Shown piece by piece: positions 15,630-61,628 of a stretch of 64,000 nt of DNA. Source of the DNA: Squalus acanthias. Taxonomy: Eukaryota. The stretch covers positions 11,842,001-11,906,000 of the forward strand of contig CM059433.1 of assembly GCA_030390025.1 (NCBI GenBank), written 5' to 3'. Position numbers and translations under genes: made by a program. Under the pieces are notes generated by a model, which worked only from the letters and a program-made list of their open reading frames with translations, searched no databases and was not told the origin of the DNA. Within the stretch, counting starts at the first letter, position 1. Each line of letters opens with the position of its first letter.

Positions 15630-15825
15630 AAAGATTAACTGTAGTCGTCTGGCATTGTTCTCTGACTATTTATGCTGTGCCCATATGTATTTCTTCACTT
15701 CACCTAATGAAGGAGCAGCGCTCCGAAAGCTTGTGATTTCAAATAAAGCTGTTGGACTATAACCTGGTGTTGTGCGACTTCTCACTTTTGTCCACCCCAG
15801 TCCAACACCGGCATCTCCGCATCAT
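15630..15825 (+). mobile_element. Penelope-like terminal repeat fragment (family A) with mutated hammerhead core
   Basis: Near-identical to 35160-35319; core reads CTAATGA rather than CTGATGA. Confidence 0.8.
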
Positions 15826-15892
15826 GTACATTATTGGGAAGGGGAGATATTTGCAGTTTATGTTCCGATAAGACCAGTGTTGTTTCAACAGC

Positions 15893-15995
15893 TAGGGCGG
15901 GAAAGTGGAGTTGATGTAGTTCAGCCGTGATCTTACTGAATGGCGGAGCAGGCTCAAGGGGCCGTAAGGCCTACTCCTGCTCCTATTTCTAGTGT
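15893..15995 (+). mobile_element. CR1 3' UTR fragment
   Basis: gggcgggaaagtggagttga...tgaatggcggagcaggctc...cctactcctgctcctatt. Confidence 0.75.
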
Positions 15996-16100
15996 TGTTA
16001 GCAAATTGCCAATATTGCCAGTCTGTCATTACACATATCAACTAGTGGAGACCACTGGAAAATCAAATTTAAAACCCAAAATGTACCATAAAAATGCATA

Positions 16101-16605
16101 GGGGTGATTTTAACTTGTTGTGCTTGACGTTAATGGGGCAGCAACAGCCTCAAAATGGCATTGGTGGCCTTACCGCCCCATCAAGCCCGTCGATGCGGCC
16201 GGCGCCTTTTTGAGAGGGGGCCGCTGAGCCTGCCTGTTTCAGACAGTAGGCTCCTTTTCATATGCAAATCGGGGTCCTCGGGCAAACTATCGCTATTTTA
16301 GATTGGAACTGGTTAGGGTGGGCGCTGTTCATGCTCTGATCAGTTCCACCGACGCTGGGATGTTTCACTGGCAGCTCCAGCACGGAAGGTTGAGGCCACG
16401 ACTGGGAGCTAAAAATCACGTCGGGGTCCGGAACACACTATTGGATCCCGATATTTAAATATCGATGAGGGCCTTGGCCGCCGCCACCTTGAATCAGCGG
16501 CGATAAAATGTCCACGAGCGTGAACGTGTCAGGAGCGCAGTGGGTAGCGCCCAACCATCTGCCGTGCACGCCATTCCCGCTGGGCGAGCAGGGTTATAAT
16601 TGAGG
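16101..16605. mobile_element. GC-rich Harbinger-like MITE
   Basis: ggggtgattttaac start, gttataattgaggc end, CpG-rich interior like the other MITEs here. Confidence 0.55.
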
Positions 16606-17064
16606 CTGTTTACGTAGTACTAGTTTGTAATGTCGCTGTAATCCTGGTAATGTAGGAGTGGTATTTGGAGTTGTTACTATTTAATTTGTAAATTTAGTGG
16701 GTTTTTTGCGGTTAACAAATTGCCATTCCCAACAGAATTAGTTCATGTATTTGTTTATGAATTTAGCAATAAATTCTTAATCAAACCTACACTGGTTCTT
16801 TCCTGAATGAATTAATCATATTGCCTAACAGGTAGTTTGCAGAATTTGTCAGTACATTTGCAAATAATCTCTGTTACGGCATCAAAAAATTCTAGAAATA
16901 GGTTTAAAAAAATGCACAGAAACTGCTCAACATTCTTGCCGATGATCAGTTTGTCAGACACAATAGAATTAAGACGATCAAGCTTATATTGTACCAACCA
17001 AGCTTGGCACTGCTACATTCCTTGCGACACCACAAGGGTACCAATGTTACAATATAATACTCAC

Positions 17065-17351
17065 TCCAGGGTTTTAAACTTCTCCACTCCTGCCGCTACA
17101 TAGCTGGCTCCGTTCTCCAGATCATCCAGATCAAAGACTCTGTGTCCCTCCTTAGGAGTGTAGATGTTCCTGACTGCCCCAAAGGGTGCGTTAATGCCCT
17201 TGGTGACCTGGTTAAGGAAAGTGTCAAAGGTGGAGACTTGTTTGTTGATGAGAAACCTTCTGCCAGTGAAGAACGGATCCCCATTTCGGTAAACTATCAC
17301 ACTCTTAGCTGCTGGTGGTTGCGGGGGAGCTCCTCTTGATGCCGTGGCCAT
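17065..17351 (-). CDS. DCDC2C: Doublecortin domain-containing protein 2C, coding exon 1 (first DCX domain)
   Basis: MATASRGAPPQPPAAKSVIVYRNGDPFFTGRRFLINKQVSTFDTFLNQVTKGINAPFGAVRNIYTPKEGHRVFDLDDLENGASYVAAGVEKFKTL; Kozak gccATGG; donor GA|gtgagt. Family is clear; the paralog call rests on lying downstream of ALLC on the same strand. Confidence 0.88.
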
Positions 17352-17532
17352 GGCCTTTAATAACAATAACAATCATAATAATGATGCTAGAAATGTCTGC
17401 AGTCACTTTCATTCACAGTCACTGAGCTTAGCGTGGACCGTCAAGATTCTCTGTCTTCTCCATAAGGTCCCACAGTCAAATTGTGTGAAACACGAGCCAG
17501 TCAGCTTGTTTGTCTGCTACCTCAGTTTAGAC

Positions 17533-17546
17533 CTCACTATGGCAAC
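17533..17546 (-). promoter_or_regulatory. Candidate RFX X-box upstream of the DCDC2C ATG
   Basis: Minus strand GTTGCCATAGTGAG, one perfect GTTGCC half-site and one imperfect half, ~180 bp upstream of the ATG of a ciliary-family gene. Confidence 0.5.
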
Positions 17547-17864
17547 TGAAGGCAGCAGTCACTCAACCAAAAAATTAACTTTTCTGACTTGGGAGGAAAA
17601 TTTGTAACCTTGAAATAAAGCAAAACAAAACACCTTAGATTAAGAAAATGTTCCAGGCCAAATTAGATCAGGTTAATGTTTGTACATCAGATATCCGTTC
17701 AAACTAATGCATTTGAATGGTTAGTGTGGTATTAAACACCAAAAGCAATAATGAGTAAGTAAAACCACCTTTCAGAAATGCTAATAAACACAATCTCCAC
17801 ATACTCCGCATATTTTAGTCAGTTGTTTGCACACATGTGCATTAGTAATTATAGCTATCACGTT

Positions 17865-18360
17865 ACAACAACTTGTATTTATAAAGTGTCTATCACAGAG
17901 TGAACACTGCAAGACATCCCAAGGAAGTGACTGAGGGCATAGTCAAAGAGGTTCGTTTTGAGGAGACCTCTGCAGGTTGGGAGAGAGGTAGCATGACCTT
18001 GTGGGGCCAAGGTCTGAAGACTCTGCCACCGATGGGGGGTTGGGTGGAGGGAGGGGGGAGTGGAGGGGGAGGGGGTACACAGGAGATCAGAGTCAAAAGA
18101 GTAGAGGGCACACACTGGCACGTAGGGCTAGAGGTGGCTATGGAGGTAAAGTAAGGCAGGGTCATGGGGGGATTTATAAACAAGGAGTTGGAGAGCGGGG
18201 CGCTAATGGAGTTCAGCGAGGATAGATGTATAAGGTCAGCTTGGCTTTGTATGAGATAAGGTGCAAACAGCAGAGCTTTGGAAGAATTGGACTTTATACG
18301 GGAATGGAGTTAGAAAGGCCAGCAGACTTGTAGAAGTTGAGACTGGAGTGATGGAGGCGT
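17865..18360 (-). mobile_element. Old degraded L2 3' fragment
   Basis: acaacaacttgtatttata tail; similarity to the other L2 3' ends in the window. Confidence 0.65.
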
Positions 18361-18754
18361 GGCTGTGTTGTGATAAAATGTGTAGGTAAATTTTGAAAAT
18401 GATGCATTTAAAACCACATATTTCTTTATAAATAGATGGTGCAATGAGACCTATATAAGGTTTCCTTTTCAGGTGTGAAATCAGTTGATCACCAGGCTGC
18501 AACATAAAATAATCATCAGCTGAAGCTCCAGTGTATATGAACAAAGAACTCCTTCGCTCCAAAAGTGCAATCTGAAATATGAGCTGTTGGAACAATATCA
18601 TTGTTAATTAACATTATAGGATAATAGATATTTAGGAGCATGTTACAAGGCTGCAACACATCGAGGAACACATAGGATCTACAAGGATGGAACACACCAA
18701 AGGGTTTAGATGATGCCATAAATTTCAAAATCACAAGCTGATATCACCTTTAAA

Positions 18755-18974
18755 GTGAGAAGTCGCACAACACCAGGTTATAGTCCAACAGCTTGATTTG
18801 AAATCACAAGTTTTCGGAGCGCTGCTCCTTCGTCAGGTGAAGTCTTCACTTCACCTGACGAAGGAGCAGCGCTCCGAAAGCTTGCGATTTCAAATAAAGC
18901 TGTTGGACTATAACCTGGTGTTGTGCGACTTCTCACTTTTGTCCACCCCAGTCCAACACCGGCATCTCCGCATC
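18755..18974. mobile_element. Palindromic Penelope-like terminal-repeat insertion (family A) with a hammerhead motif on each strand
   Basis: Inverted arms of ~90 bp; 12-bp TSD atcacctttaaa (18743-18754, 18975-18986). Confidence 0.88.
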
Positions 18975-19174
18975 ATCACCTTTAAACACATTGCAATGTA
19001 TTTGAATCTTGCTAAGTTGGGCATCCAAGGATACTGAGGCCGACAACATGCCTGGGCTGCATGTTGGAGAGTGGCTGGTGGTGGACAAATGTACTCAGCA
19101 GTTTGATGAGACAGTCCACCCACTGAGCTAACTATTCTCAGCCAATTTGTAATGTAAGGATGTGACGCCCTTAC

Positions 19175-19597
19175 CTAGTGATGGAAAGCAATTTCTGACC
19201 CGACCCCTAGAGCGGAGGTGTCCCGTCATGTTTTCCAGCTGCAAAACCTCTTTCTTTTATGAGGTGACCTTGGGACGATGGTGGCACTGAAGTGCCTTTC
19301 TCCTGGCTTACTTTGCTGCCCACTATATTATGCCCCTTGTCTGTTGGAAGGCATTCTACGGTATCCGTGTATCCATCCCTAAGCTTCGAACGTTTCTTCT
19401 TCTTTGTCTTCATCAAATCAGACAAGGCAATGGCACCGCCTCCTGAGAACTCAGCCATGGTTTGGGTTATGAATGAATCATCTCTGTAGATATGTGTATA
19501 CGTCATTTCTGAATATACGACTCTGGACTCAAGATCATCTGAAGGGAATTCTTTATAAAAGGGCTGCTGAGTTGAATTATATTTACTTGCAAATAAA
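19175..19597 (-). CDS. Putative exon of an unidentified spliced ORF (coding 19207-19597)
   Basis: Acceptor ttttctcctttatcattatttcatag|T, donor AG|gtaagg, 423 nt; open frame of 129 full codons to a TAG at 19207-19209; non-repetitive; no homolog recognised. Confidence 0.5.
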
Positions 19598-19629
19598 CTA
19601 TGAAATAATGATAAAGGAGAAAAGGTAAT

Positions 19630-21248
19630 GGCCCGGATTTTGCAGTCAGCGGCGAACGAATGGCGCTAGCCGTTCATTACACTTACACTTGCCCAGAGAC
19701 TTTCTGTGGGCTTTTGCACTGGAGCTTGCCAAAACAGCGCAGAGCCCTCTACAGGGGATCTGGGACCTGTGTGAACAGGGCAAGCAATGGTGTGTCTCCT
19801 TAACCAATCAGATTGAAAAATCCTTACTGAGACGCACAGGGGGGGGGGGGGATTTTAACCCCCAAAAACGGGTGGGTTCGGGTGGGAACTAAAAATGTAA
19901 AAAAAATCTCAAATTCAAACCCAACCCACCCACTTCCGGTTTTAATGGAGGCGGAAGTGGGGGGGAGGTGGGGGGGGGAGTGGCGACCAACCCGCTCCCA
20001 GGAGGTGGGTCGCTCATTTAAATATTTTAATGAGTCTGCGTGCCTCAGATTTTTTTCTCTCTTCCAGCTTTAACGCTGGCCAGCCAGGTTTCCCGGGCCT
20101 CAGGAAACCCGGCAGCTAAAGTAAGGTGAGGACTGCTTCATGGAACAGGTAAGCACTTTTCCAGCACTGCTTGTGGTCCAGGAGGAGCAAGAGTGCCTCC
20201 TCCCTGACTCCTCATCCCTACCAGCAAGCCTGCTAACCTCCCCAGCAATTGAACCTCAACAACCACACCCCCCGATCAGCCCCACCCCACCCGCGATCCG
20301 ATGCCCTCCCAATGTCCCCCACGGCCCCCCTGCAATCTTCTTCCCTGCTCCCCAATCTCGCCAGCCTCCCGCGATCTTCACCCCTCCTCCCCCGATCTCT
20401 CCGACCCACCCCCCCCCCCCGCGATCATCTTCCCTCCTCCCCGATCTCCATGATCCCTTCCATGATCTTCTCCCCTTCCTCTCTGAACTCTCCGGCCCCA
20501 CCCCACCCCCACCCATCAATGTCCCCTCAAACTGGCTGGCTGCAGCCAGGAAACGGAATCCAAAAATGGTAATCAGGTCCTGACGTTAAATTCAGTAGGA
20601 CCTGAGGGGAAACCCTTTCTTCCCGGTTTCCCGACGACAAAACTGCCCTCCTACCCCCACCACCCCACCCCCCCCCCTCCCCGCCTCCTCATTAATATCG
20701 GAGCAGCAGGGTCAGTCTGAACCAGGAAGTGTAAGTTAGAATAGTTAATTCGAAATCAAATCATGTACTGAAAGTGAAATAAAGAGAGGGAAAGAAAGAT
20801 GGGATTAAGAGAGAGATAAACGAAACAGAAAGAAAAAGTAAACTAAAATGTTTAATTTTAATATTTCAATTTTTTAAAATCTCTAACAATAATTAAAACC
20901 CGAGGAATGAGACTCCACACTTGTAAAAATTAATTTTCAGTGCCACAGATGTTGTTTGGCAGCAATTAAGACTTACCACGCCATTAAAAATGATTAGTTT
21001 GTTTAGTGGGTATCTATCACATAAGTACAGCAACCTCACGTCATTCCACGTGTTTCAATGCCAAGTCTCTCGGCGAGATACCGGTATCGCGCAGCTTCTG
21101 GAGGAGCAGGGCAACTCGGACAGCAACTTCCTGATCTCCGCGTTTAACTGCGCACACGCGGCCGCCGCCGCGAGTTGCTGTCCGATTTACTCTTTAGTAA
21201 TGGTGAGCACCGATAGCCTCGCCGTTATTTTTACTGCAAAATTCAGGC
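19630..21248. mobile_element. Harbinger-like MITE with a second MITE nested at ~19839-20705
   Basis: Outer ends ggcccggattttgcagt / actgcaaaattcaggc; the inner element starts g(n)attttaacccc, has a C-rich ccgatc interior and resembles 38603-39563. Confidence 0.72.
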
Positions 21249-21879
21249 GATTACTGTTGGGGGGATTTAGAAAATTGTCACCCCAATGGGTGAGAGTCCT
21301 GACTGGGAGTGAGATTTTGTAAAATTAGACCTTTTTTATAATACATTACTGACATCCACCTAGAACGTAATACGCATCTGTGAGGACTTCTTGTGTCAAC
21401 GTTCTCCATTACAATTGTCGATATCTGCCTTTTTAATGTTAACTGTCTGTGTAAAATTATTGCACTGTAATTACACCTTTCACCAGTGGCAGCACTGTGG
21501 CTCCTTGGCTTTGCATCTTTCAGCTCCTCAGCCTACACGACAGAAATATCTATATGCTCAAAGTCAACTCGACTTCTCCGCTTCCCAAATTGCTATAAGT
21601 TATGCTGATTAACGATACATAATAACATAAGATTTCAATATTATAATCAGAATAATGACAGAATGCATAACTATTAAAATAGAGATTGAACTGCATCTGT
21701 TCAATGGTCCAATTATCCCCTACCTTCTAACCCTGCTTCACCTGAAGTTTACGCTTATTTCCCCTGTGCAATGCCACAGGAGATTGACTAATGTTATATA
21801 TTAGTATAAATAAATTACATCTGGTTGACATCCTAAACAGTGAATGAAACATGACTTTGTGTTAGGAAATAACTTACCT

Positions 21880-22330: not shown

Positions 22331-22644
22331 AAAAAATCACTTACTGGAATCACCACCATCTATCTCATAATCTGCATTTCCTTCCAATTAATGCTGTATG
22401 GAAGTAAGTTCCAACACTATCTCCTTCATAGGAATTAAGGGTCTCAGGTGACGAAATCCATCTCCACAGCCTCTGCAAGCCTCATGCTCAAATGCAATCT
22501 TACTTTTAGCGGTTTACTGGACTTCACTGAACTACTTTATCACACCTTTTCCTATGTCAACAGGCATTGAGGTTTGATCAATTCAAGGCGATTCCAAAGA
22601 TGGAGGCCTGCCTCCTTAACTCTCCTCCATAGTATATCTGGCCT

Positions 22645-27500: not shown

Positions 27501-27615
27501 ATGTTTCCCACAGCCGAGGGCCAAAAAGAGAAAACGTTTCAATGGGTTGTTTAACGAGAGCTCACTCATCTTACTTTTAATTCACTGGCTTTTTCTCACC
27601 TTCACGTTCTTTTAA

Positions 27616-33793: not shown

Positions 33794-33889
33794 TCAAATT
33801 CATGTGTGCTCTATTTTAACAAAGTCATAAGCAGGTTTAAAATAAACACGCTTAATAGCTTTGTTAAAATATTGCACATAGGAATTTGA
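33794..33889. repeat. AT-rich imperfect palindrome (old MITE-like)
   Basis: tcaaattcatgtgtgctctattttaacaaag pairs with ctttgttaaaatattgcacataggaatttga. Confidence 0.7.
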
Positions 33890-34129: not shown

Positions 34130-35319
34130 GATTTCCCATAAACTGATACATACTCGATCGACAGTTCCGACGGGCCACAGCGAAAAATCGCATAGACCTC
34201 CTCAGAAGACGAACACGGGACACAACCAACAGGGTACCCTACGTCGTCCAGTACTTCCCCGGAGCGGAGAAACTACGCCATGTTCTTCGCAGCCTTCAAC
34301 ATGTCATCGATGACGACGAACACCTCGCTAAGGCCATCCCCACGCCTCCCCTACTCGCCTTCAAACAGCCGCCTAACCTCAAATGGACCATCGTTCGCAG
34401 CAAATTACCCAGCTTTCAGGAGAACAGCGACCACGACACCACACAACCCTGCCACGGCAACCTCTGCAAGACATGCCAGATAATGGACACAGATACCGTC
34501 ATCACATGTGAGGACACTACCCACCAGGTACATGGTACATACTCATGTGACTTGGCCAACGTTGTCTGCCTCATACGTTGCAGGAAAGGATGCCCCGGAG
34601 CATAGTACATCGGCGAGACCATGCAGACACTGCGACAACGTATGAACGGACACCGCGCAACAATCGCCAGGCAGGAGTGTTCCCTCCCAGTCGGGGAACA
34701 CTTCAGCAGTCAAGGACATTCAGCCTCCGATCTTCGGGTAAGCGTTCTCCAAGGCGGCCTTCGAGACACACGACAACGCAAAATCGTCGAGCAGAAACTG
34801 ATAGCCAAGTTCTGCACCCATGAGGACGGCCTCAACCGGGATCTTGGGTTCATGTCACGCTACATGTAACCCCACCTGACGTAGAGTCAACCAGACTCGA
34901 GTCGTCGTTGGCTTGTTCTCTCTACACAGATGCAGCCGGACCTGCTGTGATTTCCAGCAAAAAAAGTAAAAAGTTTTTTGTTTTCCCTACAGACCCCAGC
35001 ATCTGTCACATTTGACCCCTTGTGACCCCACCTCATTGTCTTTGTTGTATTTTGCTATCGTCTTTGATGTAATGTCTTCCTGACTGACCTGGTTGGACAC
35101 CATCCACACCTTTGATTGCCGTGATTGTCTCTCTGCCGAGGTGTGATAAAGGGCAGTTAGAAAGATTAACTGTAATCATCTGGCATTGTTCTCTGACTAT
35201 ATATGCTGTGCCTATATGCATCTCTTCACTTCACCTGATGAAGGAGCAGCGCTCCGAAAGCTTGTGATTTCAAATAAAGCTGTTGGACTATAACCTGGTG
35301 TTGTGCGACTTCTCACTTT
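34130..35319 (+). mobile_element. Penelope-like element, 5'-truncated (GIY-YIG endonuclease region plus terminal repeat, family A)
   Basis: PCHGNLCKTC linker, YIGETMQTLRQRMNGHR...VGEHF...EQKLIAKF...GLNRD; one in-frame stop; the 3' repeat holds a hammerhead motif. Confidence 0.92.
35231..35267 (+). ncRNA. Minimal type I hammerhead ribozyme motif (family A, intact)
   Basis: tcac-CTGATGA-a-ggagc(agc)gctcc-GAAA-gc-tt-gtga: helix I tcac/gtga, helix II hairpin, palindromic helix III AGCT. Confidence 0.8.
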
Positions 35320-35459
35320 AATACATATTCATTATACAACTGTGTCAGAAGCACAGACATTGTGCCATGATAAGTGGGCTATCTTCTTATCACACCACCT
35401 ATACAAGGGTCCCTCAGGCAATCATGCTTGGCCTCGGAATCTTTCTTGTCTTCGTCAAT

Positions 35460-42053: not shown

Positions 42054-42074
42054 AATGTGAACAGTCTGGCTTAA

Positions 42075-44060
42075 CCTGAGTCAGTGGCCAGGGAGGGGGA
42101 TGGAAGTGCTGGCGAGAGAACAGAGTTTATGGCGGGGGTGGGGGGTGGGGGGGGGGGGGCGAAGACAAAGGCTTCGGTCTTCCTAATGCTTAACGGGAGG
42201 AAATTGCAGTTCATTCAAGACTGGATGTCGGACAAGCAGTGTGACAGGTTAGAGGCAGTGCAGGTGTTGAGAGAGGTGGTAGTGAGGTAGAGCTGGGTTT
42301 CATCAGTGTGCATATGGAAGCTGACCCTATGCCTACAGCTGAAGCCATCAAGGGGCAGAACAGAGATGAGGAAGAGGACAGATCCTTGGGTGACTCCAGA
42401 GGTAATGTGGAGGAGGGATTCTACTGCTGGAGGTGCTCTGGCTACGATTTGATAGTTAAGTGTGGAACTAAGCCAAGGTAGTCTCACTGAGCTGGACAAC
42501 GGAGGAGAAGTGTTGGAGAAAGGTGGCCTGCTCACTCATTTCAAGGGCTGCAGAGGTCAAGGAGGACAAGTGGGAAAACGCACCCCGATCACAGTCACAA
42601 TCACAGCCAATGAGAATGTAATTTGTGACTCTAATTACTGCCCACAGATTTGGGAGACATAACATGTTCAAGGACTTTGGAGAGGAAAGGGAGTTGGAGA
42701 TGAGGTTGTAATTTGCAAGGACAGACGGATCAAGGGTGAGTTTTTTGAGGAGGAGGGTGCTGCCGGTTGTTATGTAAAGGAAGGGAGACAGTACCCGAGG
42801 AGAGAGAACCATTTACAATGTCAGCTAGCATCGGGGCCAGGAAGGGAAGTTGGGTGGTCAGCAGTTTAGTGGAAATAGGGTTAAGAAAGAAAGAAAGACT
42901 TGCATTTATATAGCGCCTTTCACGACCACCGGACATCTCAAAGCGCTTTACAGCCAATGAAGTACTTTTGAAGTGGAGTCACTGTTGTGATGTGGGAGTC
43001 ACTGTTGTAATTAAGGGAGCAGGAGGTGGACTTCATAGACAAGGTGAGCTCAGGGAGGACATGAGGAGAGATAGGAGAGAAACTAGAGAAAGACTTGGGT
43101 TCAGGGCTATGGCAGTCGGGAACCTTGGGGGAAGTTTGACTTGGTGGGCAAGGGGAAAGGCCAGGAAGCAACAGAGGCAGCTGAACAGATGGTCTTAATC
43201 TTGGTAACGAAGAAGTCTAAGAGCTCCTTGCAAAACGAAAATACTGCAGATGCTGGAAATCTGAAATAAAAACAGAAAATGCTGGAGACACTCAGCAGGT
43301 CAGGCAGCATCTGTGGAGAGAGAAACAGAGTTAACGTTTCAGGTCGATGACCAGTTCTGACGAAAGGTCATCGACCTGAAATGTTAACTCTGTTTCTCTC
43401 TTCACAGATGCTGCCTGACCGGCTGAGTGTCTCCAGCATTTTCTGTTTTTATTTAAGAGCTCCTTGCACTTGTTGTTAGAGGTGAGGGTGGAGGAGACAG
43501 GAAAGATGGGTTTAAGGAGACAGTTTGTAGTGCAGAAAAGAAGCTGGTGGATAGTGATGCTCTCCAGGATCCTGGAATAGTCAATGGTTTGGGCAGAGGA
43601 GAGTGAAGCCCGATAGTGTGGTCCAGCCAGATTTTCAGGGTGGATGGCTACACCACTTAAGCACCAGATACACTCAAGGATGCACCCCTTAGACTTGAGG
43701 GAGTGAAAATGGGAGTCATACCAGGGGCAACAACCAGGATGGGAGAGAGTAAAGGTTTTACTGGGGACAATGGCATCAAAAATGGAGGTGAGGGAGTGGT
43801 TAAGCAGATCAACAACTGTAGAAATATTGAGGCAAATGGAAGGCCTAAGGTTGGGAAGTTGAGAGTTTGAAAGTGCAGTTGTAAGTAACTTGAGTGAGAT
43901 TGTTTTCAGGGGCAGACACAGAAGGAAGTGGGGTTGGAAGCAGGTAGGGGGTGTGGGTGGAAGAAAGTGGTCGGAGATGCCTTGTCTATGGTCAAGACCA
44001 TGGGAGTAGAGAGGCCACGTGAGGTGCCAAAGTTGAAGGGCTGACCGTAAATATTGGTAG
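42075..44060 (-). mobile_element. Degraded L2 LINE with nested DeuSINE tail (~42885-42990) and Penelope palindrome
   Basis: GVTQGSVL, FHMHTDETQLYL, ISTKLLTTQLPFLAPMLADIVNGS. Confidence 0.82.
43233..43453. mobile_element. Palindromic Penelope terminal-repeat insertion (family B) with hammerhead motif at 43353-43389
   Basis: Inverted arms of ~90 bp; 15-bp TSD taagagctccttgca (43218-43232, 43454-43468). Confidence 0.88.
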
Positions 44061-51151: not shown

Positions 51152-51293
51152 GAACCGTTCTGACGAAAGGTCTTCGACCTGAAACGTTAACTCTGTTCCT
51201 CTCTCCACGGATGCTGCCTGGCCTGCTGAGTTTTTCCCAGCGTTTTCTGTTGTTATTTCGGATTTCCAGCATCCGCAGTATTTTGCTATCGTA
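51152..51293 (+). mobile_element. Solo Penelope terminal repeat (family B) beginning at an intact hammerhead motif
   Basis: gtt-CTGACGA-a-aggtc(ttc)gacct-GAAA-cg-tt-aac; 13-bp TSD ttagtacttgcag (51139-51151, 51294-51306). Confidence 0.88.
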
Positions 51294-52220
51294 TTAGTAC
51301 TTGCAGATACTGGGAACACTAATGCGTATGTAGAAGAAATCCTGCCAGGACAAGATGAATTGCAAAGTTCTGCAATCCAGGACAGAATTAAGGCACAATT
51401 CCAGCGGAAGGAACCGTAAACCGGAATGGAACCCAGATCCTCTGGGTTTCCACCTGTTTAAAGTCACCCCACAATTGCGCCGCAGTGGACTTCTTTTGCC
51501 CATTCCTGTTACGCTAAAGAACAACTTTGAAGAGCGTCTGGGGGGGCCATTCCTTGGCTCCCCTGGAAATTCCACCCAAAGCGCCCTATGGGTCCAGCAG
51601 GATCTACGTCTCACGGGACCATTTCTGGGCAATAAGAAGGCCTCACCCAAGTTGACAAGAGGGGTAATTGATAAACTAAGTTGCCCCCTCCATTTTCCTA
51701 ATGGAAATTTTTTTAAGCCCATGTTTCTTTGGGTCAGATTCTGACCTCAGATGGCCTTTTTCAGAGGGGTAGCGTGCCCCTCCACCTTCTGCCCCCTCGG
51801 TGGTGTGGACAGCTCTGTTGCATCACGACAGGTGAACTAAAGATTTGGGACAGAGGTCAGAAACACGCCATGCTACACTTCTGCCACCTCAAAAGGATCT
51901 GCAGAATTTCGACCCTCATGTGTTTTCCTGCCGTTACTCCTTCCCATTGCTTCGCTGAAGACTGCACTGAAATTGAACTGAACTGCGAGAAGGTCCCTGG
52001 CTGTTCACTTGGACTCAGAAATTGTATTATGATTGACAGCTGATGTGTAGAATCAATAAAGCCACACAGTCAAGGGCACATTTAATTCGTTCTGACACCT
52101 TAAAGACACTTTGATATTGGTGTCGATAGCAAAATACTGCGGATGCTGGAAATCCAAAATAACAACAGAAAACACTGGAAAAACTCAGCCGGCCAGGCAG
52201 CATCCGTGGAGAGAGAAACA

Positions 52221-52258
52221 GAGTTAACGTTTCAGGTCGAAGACCTTTCGTCAGAACT
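52221..52258 (-). ncRNA. Minimal type I hammerhead ribozyme motif (family B, intact)
   Basis: Minus strand agtt-CTGACGA-a-aggtc(ttc)gacct-GAAA-cg-tt-aact; palindromic helix III ACGT, GUU triplet. Confidence 0.8.
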
Positions 52259-53155
52259 GGAAAAAAGCAGGAAATGAAATAGATTTAAAGCAAGGATAAA
52301 GCTGGGAAAAGGGGGAGGGGATGAAAGAACAAAAGGAGAGATTAAGAGACATTAAGAGATAATCAAGGCAAGAGGAGGTGTTGATGTGACAGGTTGAGGC
52401 TAAATGAAGTGTGAAATGCACTGGCAGAATGAAGGACAGCTGCCAGCTTCTGGGAGGGAAAAAAAAGGGGGGCCAAACAAAAGGGTGGATGAAAAAATAA
52501 AATATAAATGTGATTGGGGCTGAGGTTATGATCTAAAACTGTTGAACTCGATATTGAGTCCAGAGGGCTGTAGGGTGCCTAAACGAAAGATGAGGTGCTG
52601 TTCCTCGAGCTTACGCTGAGCTTCCGTGGAACAGTGTAATAGGCCGAGGATGGTGAGGTCAGAGTGGGAGTGGAGCGGAGCGGAGAATTAAAGTGACAGG
52701 CCACCGGGAGCTCGGGGTCCCCCTTACGGACTGAACGGAGGTGTTCCGCAAAGCGGTCACCCAATCTGCATTTGGTCTCCCCAATGTAGAGGAGACCGCA
52801 TCGTGAGCAGCGAATACAGTATACTAAATTGCAGGAAGTACAAGTAAATCACTGTTTCACCTGGAAGGGGTGTTTGGGGCCCTGGACAGTGGGAAGAGGG
52901 GGGGTATAAGGGCATGTGTTGCATCTCCTGCGCTTGCACAGGAAGGTGCCGGGCGAAGGGGAAGGGGTGCTGGGGGTGGTAGAGGAGTGGACTAGGGTGT
53001 CGCGGAGGGAGCGGTCCCTGCGGAATGCTGAAAGGGGAGGTGAGGGGAAGATGCGTTTGGTGGTGGGATCACGCTGGAGGTGGCGGAAATGGCGGAGGAT
53101 GATCCGTTGAATGTGGAGGCTGGTGGGGTGAAAGGTGAGGACAAGGGGAACTCTA

Positions 53156-54412
53156 TCATGGTTCCGGGAGGGGCAGGGGTGAGGGCAGAAGTGCGGGAGA
53201 TAGAATGGACACGGTCGAGGGAAGGGAAGAGTCGGAGATGGACCATGTGAAGGTGAGGGAAGGGTGGAAATTGGAAGCATAGTGAATGAAATGTTCTAGT
53301 TCAGGGCGAGAGCAGGAGACGGCACCGATACAGTCATCAATGTACCGGAAAAAGAGGTGAGCGAGGGGACCCAAGTAGGACTGGAACAAAGAGTGTTCCA
53401 CATATCCCACGAAAAGGCAGGCATAGCTAGGACCCATGCAGGTACCCATAGCAAGACCTTTGATTTGGAGGAAATGGGTGGAGTCAAAGGAGAAGTTGTT
53501 CAATATGAGAACAAGTTCAGCCAGGCGGAGGAGGGTGGTGGTGGATGGGGACTGGTTGGGCCTCTGTTCAAGGAAGAAGCGGAGCGCCCTCAGGCCATCC
53601 TGGTGGGGAATGGAGGTGTAGAGGGATTGTACGTCCATAGTGAAAAGGAGGCGGTTGGGGCCGGGAAACTGGAAACTGTTAAAGTGGCGGAGGGCGGAGG
53701 AAGAGTTGCGGATGTAGGTGGGAAGAGACTGGACAAGGGGAGAAAAAATAGAGTCGAGATAGGAAGAGATAAGTTCCGTGGGGCAAGAACAGGCTGAAAC
53801 GATGGGTCTACCGAGGCAGTCCTGTTTGTGGATCTTGGGAAGGAGGTAGAAGCGGGCTGTGCGGGGTTGGGGAACTATGAGGTTGGCGGCCGTGGAGGGA
53901 AGGTCTCCAGAGGAGATGAGGTCAGTGACGGTCTTGGAAATGGTGGCTTGATGTTCGGTAGTGGGGTCATGGTCCAGGTGGAGGTAGGAGGAGGTGTCAG
54001 AGAGTTGGCGTTCAGCTTCTGCTAGGTAGAGGTCGGTACGCCAAACAACAACAGCACCACCCTTGTCAGCAGGTTTAATGACAATGTCGGGGTTGGATCT
54101 GAGGGAATAGAGTGCTGCAAGTTCAGAGGGAGATAGGTTGGAGTGAGAGAGGGGAGCAGAGAAATTGAGACGGCCGATGTCTCGCCGGCAGTTAGCAATG
54201 AAAAGATCTAGAGAGGGTAAGAGGCCAGAGGGAGGGGTCCAGGTAGAACGGGAATTCTGAAAGCGGGAGAAAGGGTCAGCCGTGCGGGGGGAAGACTCCT
54301 GGCCAAAGAAGTGGGCACGGAGGCGAAGGCGGCGGAAAAAGAGCTCAGCATCGTGCCGAGCTCGAAATTCATTGAGGTGATGAAGCTCAGGCCTTTGCTG
54401 AGGACTGATCAT
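53156..54412 (-). pseudogene. Penelope reverse transcriptase ORF fragment
   Basis: IKPADKGGAVVV, FYLLPKIHK, RPIVS, FTMDVQSLYTSIPH, QIKGLAMG, FFRYIDD; apparent deletion and frameshift near 53220. Confidence 0.93.
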
Positions 54413-55756
54413 TCGGGGTCAGAAAGGGGAAGGTCAGAAGGGATAGTGAAAACGCGGCAAGGGGTGAGATTGGGAGAAGTGGGGTCAGAGGAAAGTGAAG
54501 GGGAAGAAGGTTCGGGAGGGACGTTGGTGTTCAAGAGTTGATGAAGCTTGCGATCCTTGCGATATTGGTGTCAGTGGAGTGTTCGCATTACCAGTTTGTG
54601 GGTCTTGCACAGCTGACTGCAAACCAAATCTCAGGTCTTGCTAAAAGCAGCAGCCCAGAAAACCGACTAAAATGAATTGTTTATTACTAATTTGCACTGA
54701 ATAACTAACATTGCAAACAACAAAAAAATTTGAACTTGGCAAAAATTAGATTTTGATTTTGTATTCATACCAGGGCAGCCATGTTGCAGGCAAGCACACC
54801 ATAGGAGATAGCATTGGGATACTCTAAAGAAACGCAGGCTCCTGCAATGTGCGATTGAGTTGGTGCAGTGTCAGTCCAAACATCACACCAGCACCGCTAA
54901 AAGCACTCCACCTATTGGTCCCACTGTTCAGCAGTCTGTGTCCGAAACACTGCAATGAATTTCAGATGGTGCAAAATGAATACTAAGACCACCAATGAAG
55001 TTGTCAGATTTGTACAAATGGCTGTGCCAAATTCTGTCCATCTGGAGATCACTGATGATAATGAAACGCAAGCTATAACCTGCTGGGAGTTTACTGCACT
55101 CGTATGTCATCTTAACTTTTATCGGTCTCTGACCAGTCTCAAGCAGGTTTATAATGGATTGAATCAGCTAGTGACGTTGTATCCTTGTGCATAGATATTA
55201 ATTTTTCATATATATATATCCATTATTTATACCATGTCTAGTCATGCATTCACCTCCATTAAGGAACTCAACATCTGTGATTAATTACTTTTCTGTCCCA
55301 ATTGTCTCTTTGCGTTACTCTGTTTCATGAGTTGTCATTTGTCAGGGTTGAATATTTCACTTTGATTTCTAAGAGCATGTCAGTAGATTACTGAGTGCAA
55401 GTGTGATATATCTCTCAATCTCTTAAATGTCCTAGTGTGGAGAACAATGACCAAGTGTGTAATGCGCGTCTTTCGCGACTCACAGTGTGAAATAAAGCTG
55501 GAGCTCACTCTCAAGTGATGACAGCAAGAATGAATGAAACAGTGAGCAATGCTCTTGTTTTAGTTTCTAATTAAACTGATAAGGATTTAAATCTTAAATC
55601 ATCATCTGGAAAACAATTTGAAGGGGGAAAAAAAAGGATTAAAAAAAATCAGTTGAAAGACAAAATATAAAACATTGACAAGGAATTCCACAGAGCAGTG
55701 TGGGAAGGTGAAACTGAAATTCCCACTAGGACTGTAGAACGATGCTTGAAACATAT

Positions 55757-56290
55757 GGCCTTTCCCAGACTGTCACTGACCTCATCTCCTCTGGGGATCC
55801 TCCCTCCGCGGCCTCCAACCTCACAGTCCCCCAACCCCGCACAGCTCACTTCTACCTCTTTCCCAAGATCCACAAACAGGACTGCCCTGGTAGACTCATT
55901 GTTTCAGCCTGTTCTTTCATGGAATTTATTTCTTCCTATCTCGACTATTTTTTCTCCCCTTGTCCAGTCTCTCCCCTACCTACTCTTCTGACGCCCTCTG
56001 CCACTTTAACAGTTTCCTGTTTCCTGGCCATAACCGTCTCCTTTTCTCCATGGATGTCCAGTCCCTCTATACCTCTACAAGTCCGTCCCCCACCAAGACG
56101 GCCTGAGGGCGCTCCGCTTCTTCCTTGAACAGAGGCCCAACCAGTCCCCATCCACCACCACCCTCCTCCAGCTGGCTGAACTTGTTCTTACATTGAACAA
56201 CTTCCCCTTGACTACACTCACTTCCTCCAAATAAAAGGTGTTGCTATGGGAACCCGTATGGGTTCTCGCTATGCCTGGCATTTCCTGGGT
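55757..56290 (+). mobile_element. Penelope RT internal fragment
   Basis: TVTDLISSGD...FYLFPKIHKQDCPGR; reverse-complement homolog of ~53420-53940. Confidence 0.85.
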
Positions 56291-57600
56291 AAGTTTTTTC
56301 ATAAAGGCCGAAGAGTGTAGGAAGAAAAGGAAGCTGAGAAAGGTACGACGTTCCATACATTTGAGGTTTTGGAAAGAACGAGTTAGAGTAGATGGCACAA
56401 TGGGGATAACGTTCCAAATGTGCGCTGCCAATGAGAGAATGAGGTTTCCCGCCAACAGCACATATTCAGTGGTCCCATATTGGCCCCACTGATTCTAGAT
56501 TTCAATACCGTGAGGATGTAGGTAACACTTAGGAGCTCGTTTACATAACTGATAAAACTTATGGTCTAGTTATTAACACAAAAACTGCAGTATAGCTGGA
56601 AAGTGAAGTCACATCACCTGGGCTTCAGACCAGCTGATGCATCTACACCATAATAGTTGCCTTAATTGTGCTTAAGCTGATTAGTACTATTCAATTAACG
56701 TTATGCTTAATATTACATTAATGTGGTGGAGCAGAGTTAGTTCCGATAAATTGTAAATTCCCACCAGCAGTAGTATACTGTATTCACTGCTAATACTGCC
56801 TCACACGGAATAACCAAGCGACAGAATATTAATCTGACATTAACATAATCAATATTCATCCATTTCCTTTTTTTAAAGAAGTTAATCAACACAGAATGAA
56901 TTACTCTTGGTTAAGTCGATGATACATGCTTACAATGTGGGAAAACATTTCTTATATGCACATTATCAATGAGTTTTCACATTTGAAACTTCAATTATCT
57001 CCCACCCACTCTGTTTTTTCTCCATTGAGAATAACCCTAATTCGATCAATGGATTCTGATTACAGAGTTCTGAGCCCTGGAAACCTTTTTATTTGATCTC
57101 TTATGAGTTTCACATTTCCTATATCAAGGTGCATGGCTTTAAAATTCTGCACATTAAATTCCATCTGTGATTTCTTATTCGAGCCACTTAATATCTCCAG
57201 ATTTTTTTTTCACCTTATCAATCTTTCCTGCACTGGGGATAATGACCATACTGCGAGTATCCTCCTCCAAATACAAGTATTCCAAACAACAGAGGCCCAC
57301 AGCAGATTCCTACAGAAAAGACAGAAGGGTATGTTTATGTCTTCAGCACTCCTGGTGCAGAATTTCATTGGACCAGGAGCTGTGTCAGGAGCGCATATCA
57401 GGAATTTGGGTGCATGTCCAATTTGCAAGCCTATGATTTTCCATCCATTAAAATGGACAAACTTACCACTTATGTAAAATGTCAATTTATCTGTTCTCTC
57501 CACAGATGCTGACAAATCTGCTGTGTGGTTACAGCATTTTCTGTTTCTGTTTTTGATTTCCAGCATATGCAGTATTTTACTCATCACCTTCTGGTTTCTA

Positions 57601-58070
57601 GTGTCAGCCGTGGCTCAGTGGGTAGCACACTTGCCTTTGAGTCAGAGATCTGGTTGTGGGTTCAAGTCCCACTCCAGGGACTTGAGCACATAAAGCTAGG
57701 CTGACACTCCCAGTGCAATGCTGAGGGAGTGCTGCACTGTCGGAGGTGCCGTCTTTCGGATGAGACGTTAAACCGAGGCCCCGTCTGCCCTCTCAGGTGG
57801 ACGTAAAAGATCCCGCGGCACTATTTCGAAAAAGAGCAGGGGGGTTATCCCTGGGGCCAATATTTATATCTCAACCAACATAAGAAAAACAAATTATCTG
57901 GTCGTTATCACATTGCTGTTTGTGGGAGCTTGCTTTGTGCAAATTGGCTGCCGTGTTTCCCACATTACAACAGTGACTACACTTCAAAAGTACTTCATTG
58001 GCTGTAAAGCGCTTTGAGACGTCCGGTGGTCGTGAAAGGCGCTATATAAATGCAACTCTTTCTTTTCTTT
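57601..58070 (+). mobile_element. Full-length DeuSINE (SacSINE1-like)
   Basis: A box tggctcagtgg, B box ggttcaagtcc, Deu core, tail. Confidence 0.9.
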
Positions 58071-58592
58071 TTCTTGCTATAGCCTCGCCAGTTTTCAACG
58101 CAGCAAGCTAATTTGCTGTTAAATCCAAGGTTCACTACCTTCTTTAATTGTCTGAAATAAAGAACCTGATCAAATGTTTCCTGAGAGTGCCTGTATATTA
58201 CACCCATTGGCTAGCTCCCCGCCTCTAATTTTAGTTACCTCCTCAAAGAATTCCAGTAGATTAGTGAGGCATGACCTATTGCTTAAAAATCCATGCTGAT
58301 TGCCACTTATGGTTTCTATGCTCTTTACATGAACACTAAAATGTCACGTAAATGCAAAAGCACTTTTTCCACAATGGATGTTTGTTCGGCTAATTCAGTT
58401 GTTATGCTTTACAATTCCGTATTTAAAATCTACGCTCAAGGTTATTTCAGTATCCCTGGTATGGGAATTTCCATAATCCTACATTATCTAATATTGATAT
58501 TACGCCATTATAAAATACCGAAAAACACGAATGTATGGATTTTCATTCAATTTTTGTCTGGCCCAAATAACCAAAGATGACTAGGTAAGGAA

Positions 58593-58738
58593 GCCATGAT
58601 GTGGAGATGCCGGTGTTGGACTGGGGTGGACAAATGTGAGAAGTCGCACAACACCAGGTTATAGTCCAACAGCTTTATTAAAAATCACTTCAAATAAAGC
58701 TGTTGGACTATAACCTGGTGTTGTGCGACTTCTCACAA
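58593..58738. mobile_element. Short palindromic Penelope terminal-repeat insertion (family A, hammerhead part absent)
   Basis: Inverted arms gtgagaagtcgcacaacaccaggttatagtccaacagctttatt; 11-bp TSD taggtaaggaa. Confidence 0.85.
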
Positions 58739-59430
58739 TAGGTAAGGAAAGATATGTTGGTCTTGGCTGAAAATTCTTAAAGAGCTTGGCATCCTCCCAA
58801 TTCTCCTGGTTAGGACCTTATTTTAACTGTAGCACGTGGACTTTAATGTTCATTCAAAACACAATGACCAGCATATATACAAATGAGTAATCTACATTCC
58901 TTTTTTATGTTAAAATGCCACTAAATTCTTAAAGGAAATCTCTATCCAGGCTCCACTGACAACGCATAGAATAACTAAAATTCTGTGCACTTATTCCCCG
59001 CCTATCACTGAAGGAACCCAAATACAAATATAAACTTACTTCACTTAAAATAAAAATTTAAACGTCTGCATTATTAACCACAGCACACCCTCACTCACTG
59101 AATAATTCCTGAACCTGCCATTTTAAGAGACTTTTTTTTCACCCTGGAGACAAACCTGATATTTTTCCCATAAACAAAGACCGCATCTGTTTCTTCAGCA
59201 AGCCTGAAACACAATCAGTGGAACACAACCCTCAGTTTTTATTTTGTAAGATGAATCAGACACTGACTGACTTACCCTAGCTGCACAGCATGGAAAAAGT
59301 AAAACTGATATATCTTGTTTTTTTTACCTTTTCCATTTTTCCTCCCCTCTCTTGGAGGTGGTGGCTCAGGCTCACTCCTGAGGAAGCAGCAATGAGACCG
59401 AGAATGTGAGAGGTTGTGAAAACAGTAAGG

Positions 59431-59938
59431 ACATAGAAACATAGAAGATAGGAGCAGGAGTAGGCCATTCGGCCCCTCGAGCCTGCTCCGCCATTCGATG
59501 AGATCATGGCTGATCATCTAAACTCAGTACCCTGTACCTGCCTTCTCCCCATATCCCTTGATACCTTTACCTTTAAGAAATATATCTAACTCATTCTTCA
59601 ATATATTTAATGACTTGGCCTCAACTACCTTCTGTGGTAGAGAATTCCACAGGTTCACCACTCTCTGGGTGAAGAAATTCTTCCTCATTTCTGTCCTAAA
59701 TGGCTTACCCGTTATCCTTAGATTATGACCCCTGGTTCTGGACTCTCCGACCATCGGGAACATTCTTCCTGCATCTAGTTTGTCCAGACCTGTCAGAATT
59801 TTATATGTTTCGATGGGTAGGATTGATTGGGGAATGTCACTCAAGGGGTTGACGGTGGATAGGCAATGGCAAACATTCAAAGACTGCATGGATAAACTAC
59901 AGAATTTGTTCATCACAGTGTGGCATAAGAATAAAACA
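59431..59938 (-). mobile_element. CR1 3' end (minus) joined to an inverted upstream ORF2 piece (~59814-59938, plus)
   Basis: Minus: IETYKILTGLDKLDAGRMFP...; plus: DWGMSLKGLTVDRQWQTFKD, homologous to 47440-47550 (DWETTLKGMTVDKQWLAFKE). Confidence 0.82.
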
Positions 59939-59982
59939 TTCAGTCCATCAAGCCTGCCCAACGGGTAATTTTTTTCTCAGAT

Positions 59983-60296
59983 AAAGACCTGCATTTATGT
60001 AGCACCTTTCACGACCTCAGGACGTCCCAAAGCGCTTTACAGCCTATGAAGTACTTTTGGAGTGTTGTCACTGTTCTTATGTGGGAAACGCGGCAGCCAA
60101 TTCACACACAGCAAGTCCCACAAACAGCAATGTGATAATGACCAGATAATCTGTTTTAGGTGTTGGTTGAGAGATAAATATTGGCCAGAATTTCCCTGCT
60201 TTTCTTCAAATAGTGCCATGGGATCTTTTACGTCCACCTGAGAGGGCAGACGGGGCCTCGGTTTAACGTCTCATCCGAAAGACGGCACCTCCGACA
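59983..60296 (-). mobile_element. DeuSINE, 5'-truncated
   Basis: Reverse complement of the Deu core and tail. Confidence 0.85.
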
Positions 60297-60708
60297 TTAA
60301 TAAATAAAAAACATTGATTGCGAATCAATTTACCCCTCCACTGTGTTTCCTCTTGTCTTCAATCATACTATCAAAACAAATTTCAGAAATTACTCCGTTT
60401 GATACTAACACAGAAGGCACTCACACATTTAAAATGCAGTCTTTAATAGGTGATTTTTTTTTTAAAAGCACAATCAATTTTTGAACCGAGGCTTTTTGTT
60501 TCTTTTTTCCGATTTTTAAAATTATATTTGATTTCGCTCTCTGATCAGAATAATATTGGGCAGACATTTAAAGAGAGGAAACTAACCCAAACAGTAAAGA
60601 GATGGTTACACCACTGAAAGTAACCTATTACTGTCTGCAAAGAATAAAGGCTACACCATTTTACAGGTAAGAAATAAGCTAAAAGTAGACTAGATATTAC
60701 AGCTGTTT

Positions 60709-60838
60709 GTTATTTCACAAACGCACTCGTACCACGTTTCTTTCTCTGATATTTTAATAGAGCCGTTAACCCATAGCATCTCCATTAAAATAGCAGAGGT
60801 GCATTTGGTACAAGTGCATTAAACGTCTGTACAATAAC
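60709..60838. repeat. Imperfect palindrome (old MITE-like hairpin)
   Basis: Three paired blocks: gttatttcacaaacg/cgtctgtacaataac, gcactcgtacca/tggtacaagtgc, ctctgatattttaatagag/ctccattaaaatagcagag. Confidence 0.72.
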
Positions 60839-61408
60839 GCCACTGGCAGTAACTCCTAGCCTACAACCTGGCAAATGCATATATTCAATGTATCGTCATT
60901 TAAATTCAGTGATTGTCACCACATATTACTTAAAAGTGAGAAGTAGGCTCCAAAAACCTGAAGGCATCCCACTCAATGCCTAAGTCAGGCAAAAGTGCGG
61001 AGCAAGGCCTGTGATTTTGAATAAGACTCGAACGCGCCAAATCCCGGCATTTTCTGCCTCCTCGGTGGGGGGGGGCCGTTTGAGTCAGAACCTCCCGCCA
61101 ACCCCACGTCAAAGGGGATGAGGTGGAGGAGGGGGGCCTCCCAGGGTAGGAGTTCCCCTCAGGCGCAGCAGGGTGAAAGGAGGGCATACCATCCTGCTGG
61201 CAGGTGGAAAGTGAGAATCCCGAGGAATTCTGGCAGTGTTTGGGTCTGATCAGCTCTATTTGCAAGAGGACAATGGGCCCTTTCAAAATCGAATTTATAG
61301 GCAGGGCCGCTGCAGACCAAACAAGCAGTGGGGGCCTCTGCCACTTCTCCCGCCCTTGGTGGTACGGTAGGTGCCCAGAGTGGGGTAGATGCCTCCTGGT
61401 TTTATTTA

Positions 61409-61628
61409 TGATGCGGAGATGCCGGTGTTGGACTGGGGTGGACAAAAATGAGAAGTCGCACAACACCAGGTTATAGTCCAACAGATTTATTTAAAATTAC
61501 AAGCTTTTGGAGCTGTTGCCCCTTCGTCCCATTGTAACTCTACCTGACGAAGGGGCAACAGCTCCGAAAGCTCGTAATTTTAAATAAATCTGTTGGACTA
61601 TAACCTGGTGTTGTGCGACTTCTCATTT
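61409..61628. mobile_element. Palindromic Penelope terminal-repeat insertion (family A variant) with hammerhead motif at 61541-61576
   Basis: 12-bp TSD tggttttattta (61397-61408, 61629-61640); tac-CTGACGA-a-ggggc(aaca)gctcc-GAAA-gc-tc-gta. Confidence 0.88.

Follow-up and report, generated by a model that had tools for sequence, protein, structure and literature searches.

The 64,000-nt stretch of the Squalus acanthias genome analysed here (the window) contains eight hammerhead motifs of the minimal type I kind, which lie in terminal repeats (pLTRs) belonging to two Penelope-like element (PLE) families. This agrees with the initial annotation and is borne out by an extra base at 9.1 and a palindrome over 15.1-16.1, both marks of the published class. 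On sequence grounds they are new members of the minimal hammerhead (min-HHR) class known from Penelope elements (PMC4209133), and their cleavage is a prediction. We think it probable that they are pLTR motifs of two elasmobranch PLE families that cut as dimers in the RNA of an active element and that the scattered copies are inert. The features on which this reading is based are as follows.

15621..15826, plus strand: 5'-truncated family A Penelope end with a tail of ~38 nt
15700..15736, plus strand: minimal hammerhead of family A, core changed by G5A, lying antisense within DCDC2 intron 1 (41.9 bits)
18752..18976, both strands: head-to-head inverted family A insertion, one arm tailed, 12-bp target-site duplication
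18804..18840, minus strand: family A motif with a broken palindrome (AACT)
18851..18887, plus strand: family A motif, helix I down to 1 bp
34146..35319, plus strand: 5'-truncated family A Penelope-like element with C-X4-C-X2-C linker, GIY-YIG remnant, then 3' UTR/pLTR
34870..34909, plus strand: decayed third-subfamily motif nested in the family A 3' UTR (14.3 bits, E 0.088)
35231..35267, plus strand: intact family A minimal hammerhead, predicted cut after 35263
43238..43454, both strands: head-to-head inverted family B insertion, 15-bp target-site duplication
43353..43389, plus strand: family B motif with palindrome ATGT (wobble pairs only)
51153..51291, plus strand: short tailed family B insertion, 13-bp target-site duplication
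51157..51191, plus strand: intact family B minimal hammerhead, helix I of 3 bp, predicted cut after 51188
52125..54560, minus strand: 5'-truncated family B Penelope-like element with RT, C-X4-C-X2-C linker and GIY-YIG
52222..52258, minus strand: intact family B minimal hammerhead
57495..57581, plus strand: old family B end, core not recognisable (77% identity)
58595..58736, both strands: inverted family A insertion without core, 11-bp target-site duplication
61408..61629, both strands: inverted insertion of subfamily A2, 12-bp target-site duplication, ~410 nt downstream of the ALLC stop
61541..61576, plus strand: intact subfamily A2 minimal hammerhead, predicted cut after 61573

A loose pattern (CTGANGA-N6-30-GAAA) matches the window 15 times as compared with a mean of 5.8 and a maximum of 12 in 200 shuffles of the window. 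The structural descriptor, which adds a helix II of at least 4 bp and A15.1-N-N-U16.1-H17, keeps 7 of these 15 matches (shuffled mean 0.07, maximum 1), and with a helix I of at least 3 bp six are left against none in the 200 shuffles. These seven matches are copies of two repeat families and are therefore not independent events. All eight motifs were recovered at, or no more than 1 nt from, the places where the initial annotation had put them, 52221 becoming 52222, and the one it called mutated, at 15700, has a G5A change in its core. The core CUGANGA...GAAA with U16.1 and H17 is present in the other seven. The unpaired base between A9 and 10.1 is A in all eight, and a palindromic 15.2-16.2 without loop 3 (AGCT or ACGT) is found in six. 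AGCT had been assigned to family A and ACGT to family B throughout; the former holds in general, except for AACT at 18804 (-), and the latter at 51157 and 52222 (-), with ATGT at 43353. Helix I is short, as in type I topology, with 3-4 bp in seven motifs and 1 bp at 18851. Its reported pairings tcac/gtga at 35231 and tac/gta at 61541 are present in the sequence; the agtt/aact reported for family B is in fact gtt/aac at 51157. The A2 motif at 61541 additionally has a 4-nt loop II and C17. Cuts predicted after 35263, 51188 and 61573 agree with hammerhead numbering, and in total only four of the eight motifs (35231, 51157, 52222 on the minus strand and 61541) are fully intact. The highly conserved G10.1-C11.1 pair, which is typical of the min-HHR class and not obligatory in it, is present in family A and in all 10 aligned relatives, and is A-U in the three family B rows.

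Further traces had been overlooked in the first reading: a decayed ninth motif, core-truncated arms at 61501-61528 (-) and 43333-43355 (-), and arms with no core. The ninth motif (34870-34909) has a family-B-like tail, a decayed core and a 5-bp helix II with two compensatory differences relative to family B.

Both families are placed by their Cys linker (C-X4-C-X2-C, of the Neptune/Nematis type CX2-5CxxC) and GIY-YIG among the EN+ PLEs of Neptune/Nematis type, an assignment made from sequence. The family B element is frameshifted and internally deleted, with its 12-bp target-site duplication at 52113 and 54561, and the motif lies ~270 nt downstream of the RT-GIY-YIG remnant. Its RVT_1 (E 7e-6) and GIY-YIG (E 0.015) matches are both below the Pfam cut-offs, and its tblastn alignments are collinear with full-length relatives having both RT and GIY-YIG. 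The closest family B RT relatives are elasmobranch proteins with 67-72% identity, followed by marine invertebrate proteins. For family A the ORF comprises the endonuclease part only (GIY-YIG E 0.073, tblastn E 5e-21), interrupted by an in-frame stop, and the motif follows ~365 nt downstream of this remnant. Target-site duplications of 11-15 bp were found at six of the nine insertions examined, with 7-bp candidates at two and none at one. Four insertions are head-to-head inverted pairs, each tailed on one arm, which is a published PLE signature in the available parts of PMC3846280 and PMC8557442; the minus arm of 43238-43454 begins inside helix II. The upstream direct pLTR is absent from the window and is seen in a metagenome relative (L005). 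We considered whether the family B cut overlaps a branch point preceding a splice acceptor and dropped the idea, the acceptor AG being GG in two of the four young B arms.

Could the likeness of a repeat family to a hammerhead be due to chance? Rfam, which the initial annotation had proposed as a check, gave no hammerhead family among the 15 matches listed at E<=5, and the seven descriptor matches collapse to two families. Against this, the two families in the window differ in helix sequence yet share core, 9.1 base, palindrome and position, and distant metagenome families contradict it with the same core, 9.1 base, palindrome and location behind a PLE ORF, so we give chance likeness a negligible probability. 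The miRNA-type matches in Rfam (58635, 61492 and 43311) correspond to fold-back insertions and were set aside.

Among 80 metagenome loci of related RTs we obtained 21 descriptor matches, 16 of them with the ACGT palindrome, which the descriptor did not require in this search. A covariance model located a sense motif behind the ORF in 19 of the 23 marine-metagenome loci of family B RT relatives having at least 500 nt of flank; six of the 19 were in the training set and about ten belong to one family. Across 17 aligned motifs 95% of cells pair and two-sided changes occur at nine of ten pairs, including G-C versus C-G at 15.2/16.2. Covariation of helices I and II is partly built in, because their pairing helped to select the alignment and the rows are related, and the palindrome is the sole feature left unselected. 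Searching metagenome and viral contigs with exact DNA patterns for the ends of families A and B gave no match.

Family A is a very abundant repeat, one 301-bp stretch being matched by 1,732-22,682 contigs per run in four sequencing runs. High-frequency variants inside the A motif in these runs fall at N7, loop II and N17, and G12A, attributable to CpG decay, is seen at 4-8% in three of the four. The listed variants cover at least 8 of 37 motif positions, at least 17 of 72 upstream and at least 4 of 49 downstream, and, taken whole, the A motif shows no higher conservation than the sequence flanking it; the core takes 1 variant in 11 positions versus 7 in 26 outside it, numbers too few to decide. 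The motifs may be hammerheads by descent that have lost useful cleavage and persist in the pLTR in another role, binding protein, dimerising RNA or serving as structure. Such a loss would fit a motif no more conserved than its downstream flank, the 10 of 12 young arms that run across the uncut site, the A-U at 10.1-11.1 and core-burying competitor fold of family B, and the anole RNA-seq data, which in the available text of PMC11167929 include no reads beginning or ending at the cut site. However, the catalytic positions are invariant in all 17 motifs of the alignment, which come from distant families (an invariance owed in part to selection), changes at N7 and N17 stay among tolerated bases and both helices covary between families. 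We regard this loss as unlikely.

Cleavage in vivo might also often set the template's 5' end, with genomic 5' truncations accumulating at the cut. The minus arm of 58595-58736 begins at 58688, the first base past the predicted cut, with no microhomology, and the plus arm begins 5 nt further. Moreover, the starts of 9 of the 12 young arms fall in the range -14 to +34 relative to C3, and in run X1 the summed contig depth, which is not copy number, about triples across the motif after being flat over 100 nt upstream. Yet this is a single arm, for which the chance of an exact start is 8-21% given 5-12 arms in a range of 50-65 nt. None of nine inverted arms in the metagenome relatives (RT-selected loci, two ends unreliable) starts at the cut, and ordinary 5' truncation already predicts short arms. 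This role for cleavage is accordingly very unlikely. Among the loose ends listed, one that run X16 shows before 35263 (8 contigs) was rejected as a sign of cutting, its consensus resembling the element's own 3' part.

The initial annotation attached significance to the density of motifs next to host genes, and our data do not support a special meaning of these neighbours; the motifs are locally dense because the underlying repeat is very abundant. Pfam scans of 150 of the 228 ORFs and 43 of the 50 exon candidates, a coverage with which short exons may be overlooked, gave only DCX, allantoicase and Myb/SANT domains and one sub-threshold LdpA match. DCDC2 and ALLC are both on the minus strand, seven motifs are located in the interval from the ALLC stop to the DCDC2 start codon, and none of the eight is in sense orientation inside the coding span of either gene. 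Scattered copies co-opted to cut or regulate DCDC2 or ALLC transcripts would find some encouragement in the 61408-61629 insertion, which sits at the first AATAAA past the ALLC stop, and in the 18752-18976 pair, 1.4 kb upstream of the DCDC2 start codon. However, at ALLC the minus arm is missing the first part of its core and its GAAA is altered, the DCDC2 minus arm has a broken palindrome and both are in fold-backs with a helix II probability of 0.0. The sole intronic motif, at 15700, is antisense and mutant, and the copies are young (88-98% alike) and decay in an ordinary manner. Co-option is thus highly improbable.

Folding predictions bear on where dimers could form. Four motifs sit in ~90-bp fold-back insertions predicted to bury them, and the family B monomer is predicted to fold its core onto the cut site, with a helix I probability of 0.02-0.07. 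The palindrome self-duplex has a predicted energy of -3.5 to -4.3 kcal/mol; in unconstrained homodimer folding the helix III dimer was not the best structure for any copy. In such models U17 could stretch the palindrome to six bases by pairing with the partner's A14, which would likely slow cleavage. None of the eight motifs has a nearby same-strand partner within the window. The closest same-strand pairs within a family, the mutant at 15704 with 18855 and 43357 with 51160, are separated by 3.2 kb and 7.8 kb respectively, and their members belong to different insertions. The scattered copies are likely ill-placed for dimerisation and inert leftovers.

Under our preferred reading, dimer cutting in the RNA of active elements, retrotransposition would have spread the motifs together with the pLTRs of the two families. 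In the tandem RNA of an active element, pairing of two copies by way of the 4-base palindromes is likely, and the pair would probably cut slowly after position 17, by analogy with the min-HHR dimers of S. mansoni, and the element's own protein likely assists, as in the anole element PAc. Cleavage would then trim tandem read-through RNA and may be dispensable for each insertion.

Min-HHRs in metazoan Penelope-like pLTRs were described in 2014 by Cervera & De la Pena (PMC4209133). According to the parts of that work available, monomers are inactive and dimers weakly active, and motifs occur in Xena, Poseidon and Neptune elements of fishes, coelacanth (~4,000) and Xenopus (~9,000). The window motifs resemble them in their type I topology without loop 3, unpaired base between 9 and 10.1, palindromic 15.2-16.2, helix I of 3-4 bp and location in pLTRs, mostly as solo truncated copies or opposite-strand pairs. 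They differ in a helix II of 5 bp versus 7-8 bp in the S. mansoni families, in the family B A-U at 10.1-11.1 and in U17 in most copies. Sharks are not named in the text or the two supplement files searched, and among openly licensed papers and bioRxiv we found none on elasmobranch PLE hammerheads. The PAc ribozyme of Anolis carolinensis requires protein in order to cleave, and in vitro insertion can proceed without the ribozyme (Frangieh et al. 2024, PMC11167929, available text). Like the motifs of our families, it is a pLTR hammerhead that has only stems I and II, and PAc also shares with them a pair of alternative 3' ends (tail), AT-rich targets and uncut RNA as the usual insertion template. 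PAc belongs to the Penelope/Poseidon clade with an ORF starting inside stem II, whereas the window families have the Neptune/Nematis Cys linker and no full-length copy. As in the EN+ Neptune/Nematis PLEs covered in the available part of Craig et al. 2021 (PMC8557442), there is a C-terminal GIY-YIG with a CX2-5CxxC linker, and copies are 5'-truncated and inverted with a 30-40 bp tail. Non-LTR retrozymes (bioRxiv 10.64898/2026.07.22.740005, in the portion available) likewise carry type I hammerheads, related to PLE pLTRs, and occur in the single chondrichthyan sampled; they are enriched in intergenic DNA, as tested in Xenopus only. They form direct tandem arrays, whereas the window copies are solo or inverted and none is in direct tandem.

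The local density is 8 per 64 kb, which would extrapolate far above the counts in the available parts of PMC4209133 and comes from one window. A more far-reaching proposal, which we hold to be improbable, is that minimal hammerheads occur about once per 8 kb in elasmobranch genomes, well beyond the published counts for vertebrates, that the AGCU and ACGU palindromes of co-existing Penelope families are unable to pair with each other and so act as family-specific dimerisation keys, and that insertions starting at the cut, such as 58688, record cleavage in vivo. If it were true, the distribution of 5' ends over the genome would be a direct test of cutting by PLE hammerheads in the course of transposition. 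Our analysis adds elasmobranch examples to a class known since 2014. A genome with two young families, both very abundant and differing in palindrome, provides material for testing dimer specificity, and in it 5' ends at the cut site could be counted with good statistical power, a count relevant to the role of the PLE ribozyme.

The eight hammerhead motifs proposed in the initial annotation were all recovered at their places by a pattern search of the window. The loose core pattern alone is a weak signal, with 15 matches versus 5.8 in shuffled sequence; with core, helix II and cleavage-site rules 7 motifs remain versus 0.07, and with helix I added to the descriptor 6 remain versus 0 across 200 shuffles. 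As the 7 matches are copies of two families, the weight rests on two differing helix sequences with a common architecture. In standard hammerhead numbering, used here for core, helices and predicted cut, four of the eight are fully intact (35231, 51157, 52222 on the minus strand and 61541). The helix III palindromes described for family A (AGCT) and family B (ACGT) hold apart from 18804 (minus), which reads AACT, and 43353, which reads ATGT, and helix I is cut down to one base pair in the 18851 copy. The copy at 15700, already described as mutated, indeed carries the core mutation G5A. The suggested Rfam check returned no hammerhead family among window matches at E≤5, placing both families' motifs outside the Rfam hammerhead families. 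A covariance model built on 7 motifs from the window plus 10 from relatives found all eight again (seven by construction), with extra weak matches at 34870-34909, 61501-61528 (minus) and 43333-43355 (minus) among the 19 listed at E≤5.

The attribution to Penelope-like elements (PLEs) is borne out by ORF remnants that motifs of both families follow (35231 and 52222), and two host exons frame most of the motifs and mark the DNA as that of a shark or ray:

34146-34870, plus strand: remnant of a family A GIY-YIG ORF that includes a C-X4-C-X2-C linker, preceding motif 35231
Preceding motif 52222, minus strand: broken family B ORF (RT, linker, GIY-YIG) within an insertion of 2.4 kb flanked by a 12-bp target-site duplication
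17351-17064, minus strand: DCDC2-type first exon, 92-98% identity to elasmobranch proteins
62183-62043, minus strand: last allantoicase (ALLC) exon, 73-91% identity to elasmobranch proteins

The endonuclease regions of A and B are only distantly related: the family A one matches family B relatives at just 26-33%. From its sequence, the Cys linker of both families points to the Neptune/Nematis clades, which a linker of this type is reported to mark (PMC8557442), and to no finer placement. The short copies are separate insertions; among nine insertions examined, target-site duplications are of 11-15 bp in six, 7-bp candidates in two and absent in one. The head-to-head pairs represent four insertions with an additional 26-40 nt tail on one arm, a published PLE structure (PMC8557442, PMC3846280). 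The 3' UTR of the family A element contains a nested, older end that is family-B-like and has a decayed hammerhead (34870-34993); the helix II of this end departs from that of family B at two compensatory pairs, which suggests a third subfamily. At 51153-51161, the 5' end of a short family B insertion, four additional bases complementary to its first four form a mini fold-back, which may be the shortest form of inverted arm. A second, more decayed PLE RT fragment (55760-56305, plus) has 85% identity to 53406-53940 in opposite orientation.

Both genes lie on the minus strand and, relative to their coding parts, seven of the eight motifs fall in the interval from the ALLC stop codon to the start codon of DCDC2, with the core-mutant 15700 antisense inside DCDC2 intron 1. 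Databases name the protein DCDC2; the order of ALLC then a DCDC2-type gene on one strand is that of the DCDC2C neighbourhood in other vertebrates. An inverted insertion of the family A subfamily A2 (61397-61640, minus) landed at the first AATAAA past the ALLC stop (61638), which is copied in its target-site duplication (61406), and carries a further one (61491). With its ~90-bp hairpin behind the signal, the insertion might change how the ALLC 3' end is formed. Around 27% of the window matches elsewhere within it, and there are numerous LINE-like RT fragments, presumably CR1/L2. A Myb/SANT-like domain (PF13873, E 2e-5; 5456-5899, minus) is likely derived from a Harbinger-type transposon. Two imperfect inverted repeats are unrelated to PLE ends, one AT-rich and without explanation (33794-33889) and one apparently of two facing LINE 3' ends (477-665).

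A total of 1,112 relatives of the family B RT pass E≤1e-20, elasmobranch proteins leading the list, and a metagenome scan for RT relatives retained 80 of 387 loci. On these the structural descriptor gave 21 matches, 16 with the ACGT palindrome that it left free, and three further matches have ACAT or ATGT, each a single CpG change from ACGT. Among the 23 loci that extend 500 nt or more past the ORF, a sense motif follows 99-146 nt behind it in 9 by descriptor and follows it in 19 by covariance model, which found none in four (L006, L008, L027 and L029). As six of the 19 served in model training and about ten come from one family, the independent families number about seven. In a 17-row alignment 95% of cells pair (slid controls 24-45%), with two-sided changes in 9 of 10 pairs; since pairing in helices I and II had entered the selection of motifs, independent evidence comes solely from the palindrome and the 9.1 base.

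The family A stretch 35030-35330 is represented by 13,388, 10,393, 1,732 and 22,682 contigs in four runs from two organisms (20 runs listed), so this family is very abundant. Among variants listed around 35231, those at ≥3% affect at least 8 of 37 positions in the motif, 17 of 72 in the upstream flank and 4 of 49 in the downstream flank, counts that do not show the motif to be better conserved than the downstream flank. Within the motif the frequent changes affect N7 (T, C, G), loop II and N17; at N17, U to C accounts for 11% of depth in one run and 27% in another. The sole variant listed among 11 core positions is G12 (4-8% in three runs), and the C of its CpG varies at a similar rate. This fits tolerated master-copy change together with neutral decay after insertion. 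In one contig of a single run (X5), position 35315 at the 3' end of family A is joined to 35182, possibly a short direct tandem with two whole motifs that could dimerise.

By analogy, two motifs carried on one tandem transcript (pLTR-ORF-pLTR) would pair via the palindrome, making helix III, and would then cut slowly after N17, as reported for S. mansoni minimal hammerhead dimers (PMC4209133; review PMC6765202). Computed self-duplex energies are -4.3 (A) and -3.5 kcal/mol (B) versus -0.2 for the A-B cross duplex, which predicts that neither family activates the other. Counting against easy activity, the helix III dimer was not the top structure in unconstrained co-folding, family B is predicted to favour a fold pairing core with cut site, and U17 could pair with A14 of the partner motif. 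Where an ACGU-type motif has C at N7, its core and cut-site strands can pair with each other, over 5 bp in family B and 6 bp in the L022 family, and this pairing is predicted at:

52222-52258, minus strand: family B motif
51157-51191: family B motif
43353-43389: family B motif
L019, L022, L036 and L039: metagenome loci

Modelling predicts this to be a self-inhibited monomer fold that the AGCU-type family A is missing. When folded in context, helix II probability is 0.0 for the four motifs in inverted pairs and helix I probability ≤0.005 for those outside them. Within the window no motif has a nearby same-strand partner, and the dispersed copies are poor candidates for activity.

Past the predicted cut each young arm runs 50-105 nt to its end; 10 of 12 young arms span the cut, so the template that was copied had mostly either stayed uncut there or been rejoined. 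The anole element is reported to be in agreement, with uncut RNA as its main substrate and a ribozyme that cleaves only in the presence of protein (PMC11167929). Nine of the 12 arms start between -14 and +34 relative to C3, and arm 58688 (minus) starts at the first base past the predicted cut without microhomology. One such exact start is expected by chance at 8-21% under simple assumptions and occurs in none of nine inverted arms of metagenome relatives, leaving it a hint, a lead to something more rather than evidence.

No paper on elasmobranch PLE hammerheads was found in the openly licensed literature and bioRxiv; related retrozymes are reported from one chondrichthyan (bioRxiv 10.64898/2026.07.22.740005), and the copies here are not a retrozyme array. 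The motifs resemble the PLE minimal hammerhead class, reported for fish Neptune and Poseidon elements (PMC4209133), in mode and its testable features, with cleavage predicted; family B differs in its A-U at 10.1-11.1. Judged from sequence, the motifs of both families are real, ordinary additional examples of this already described class.
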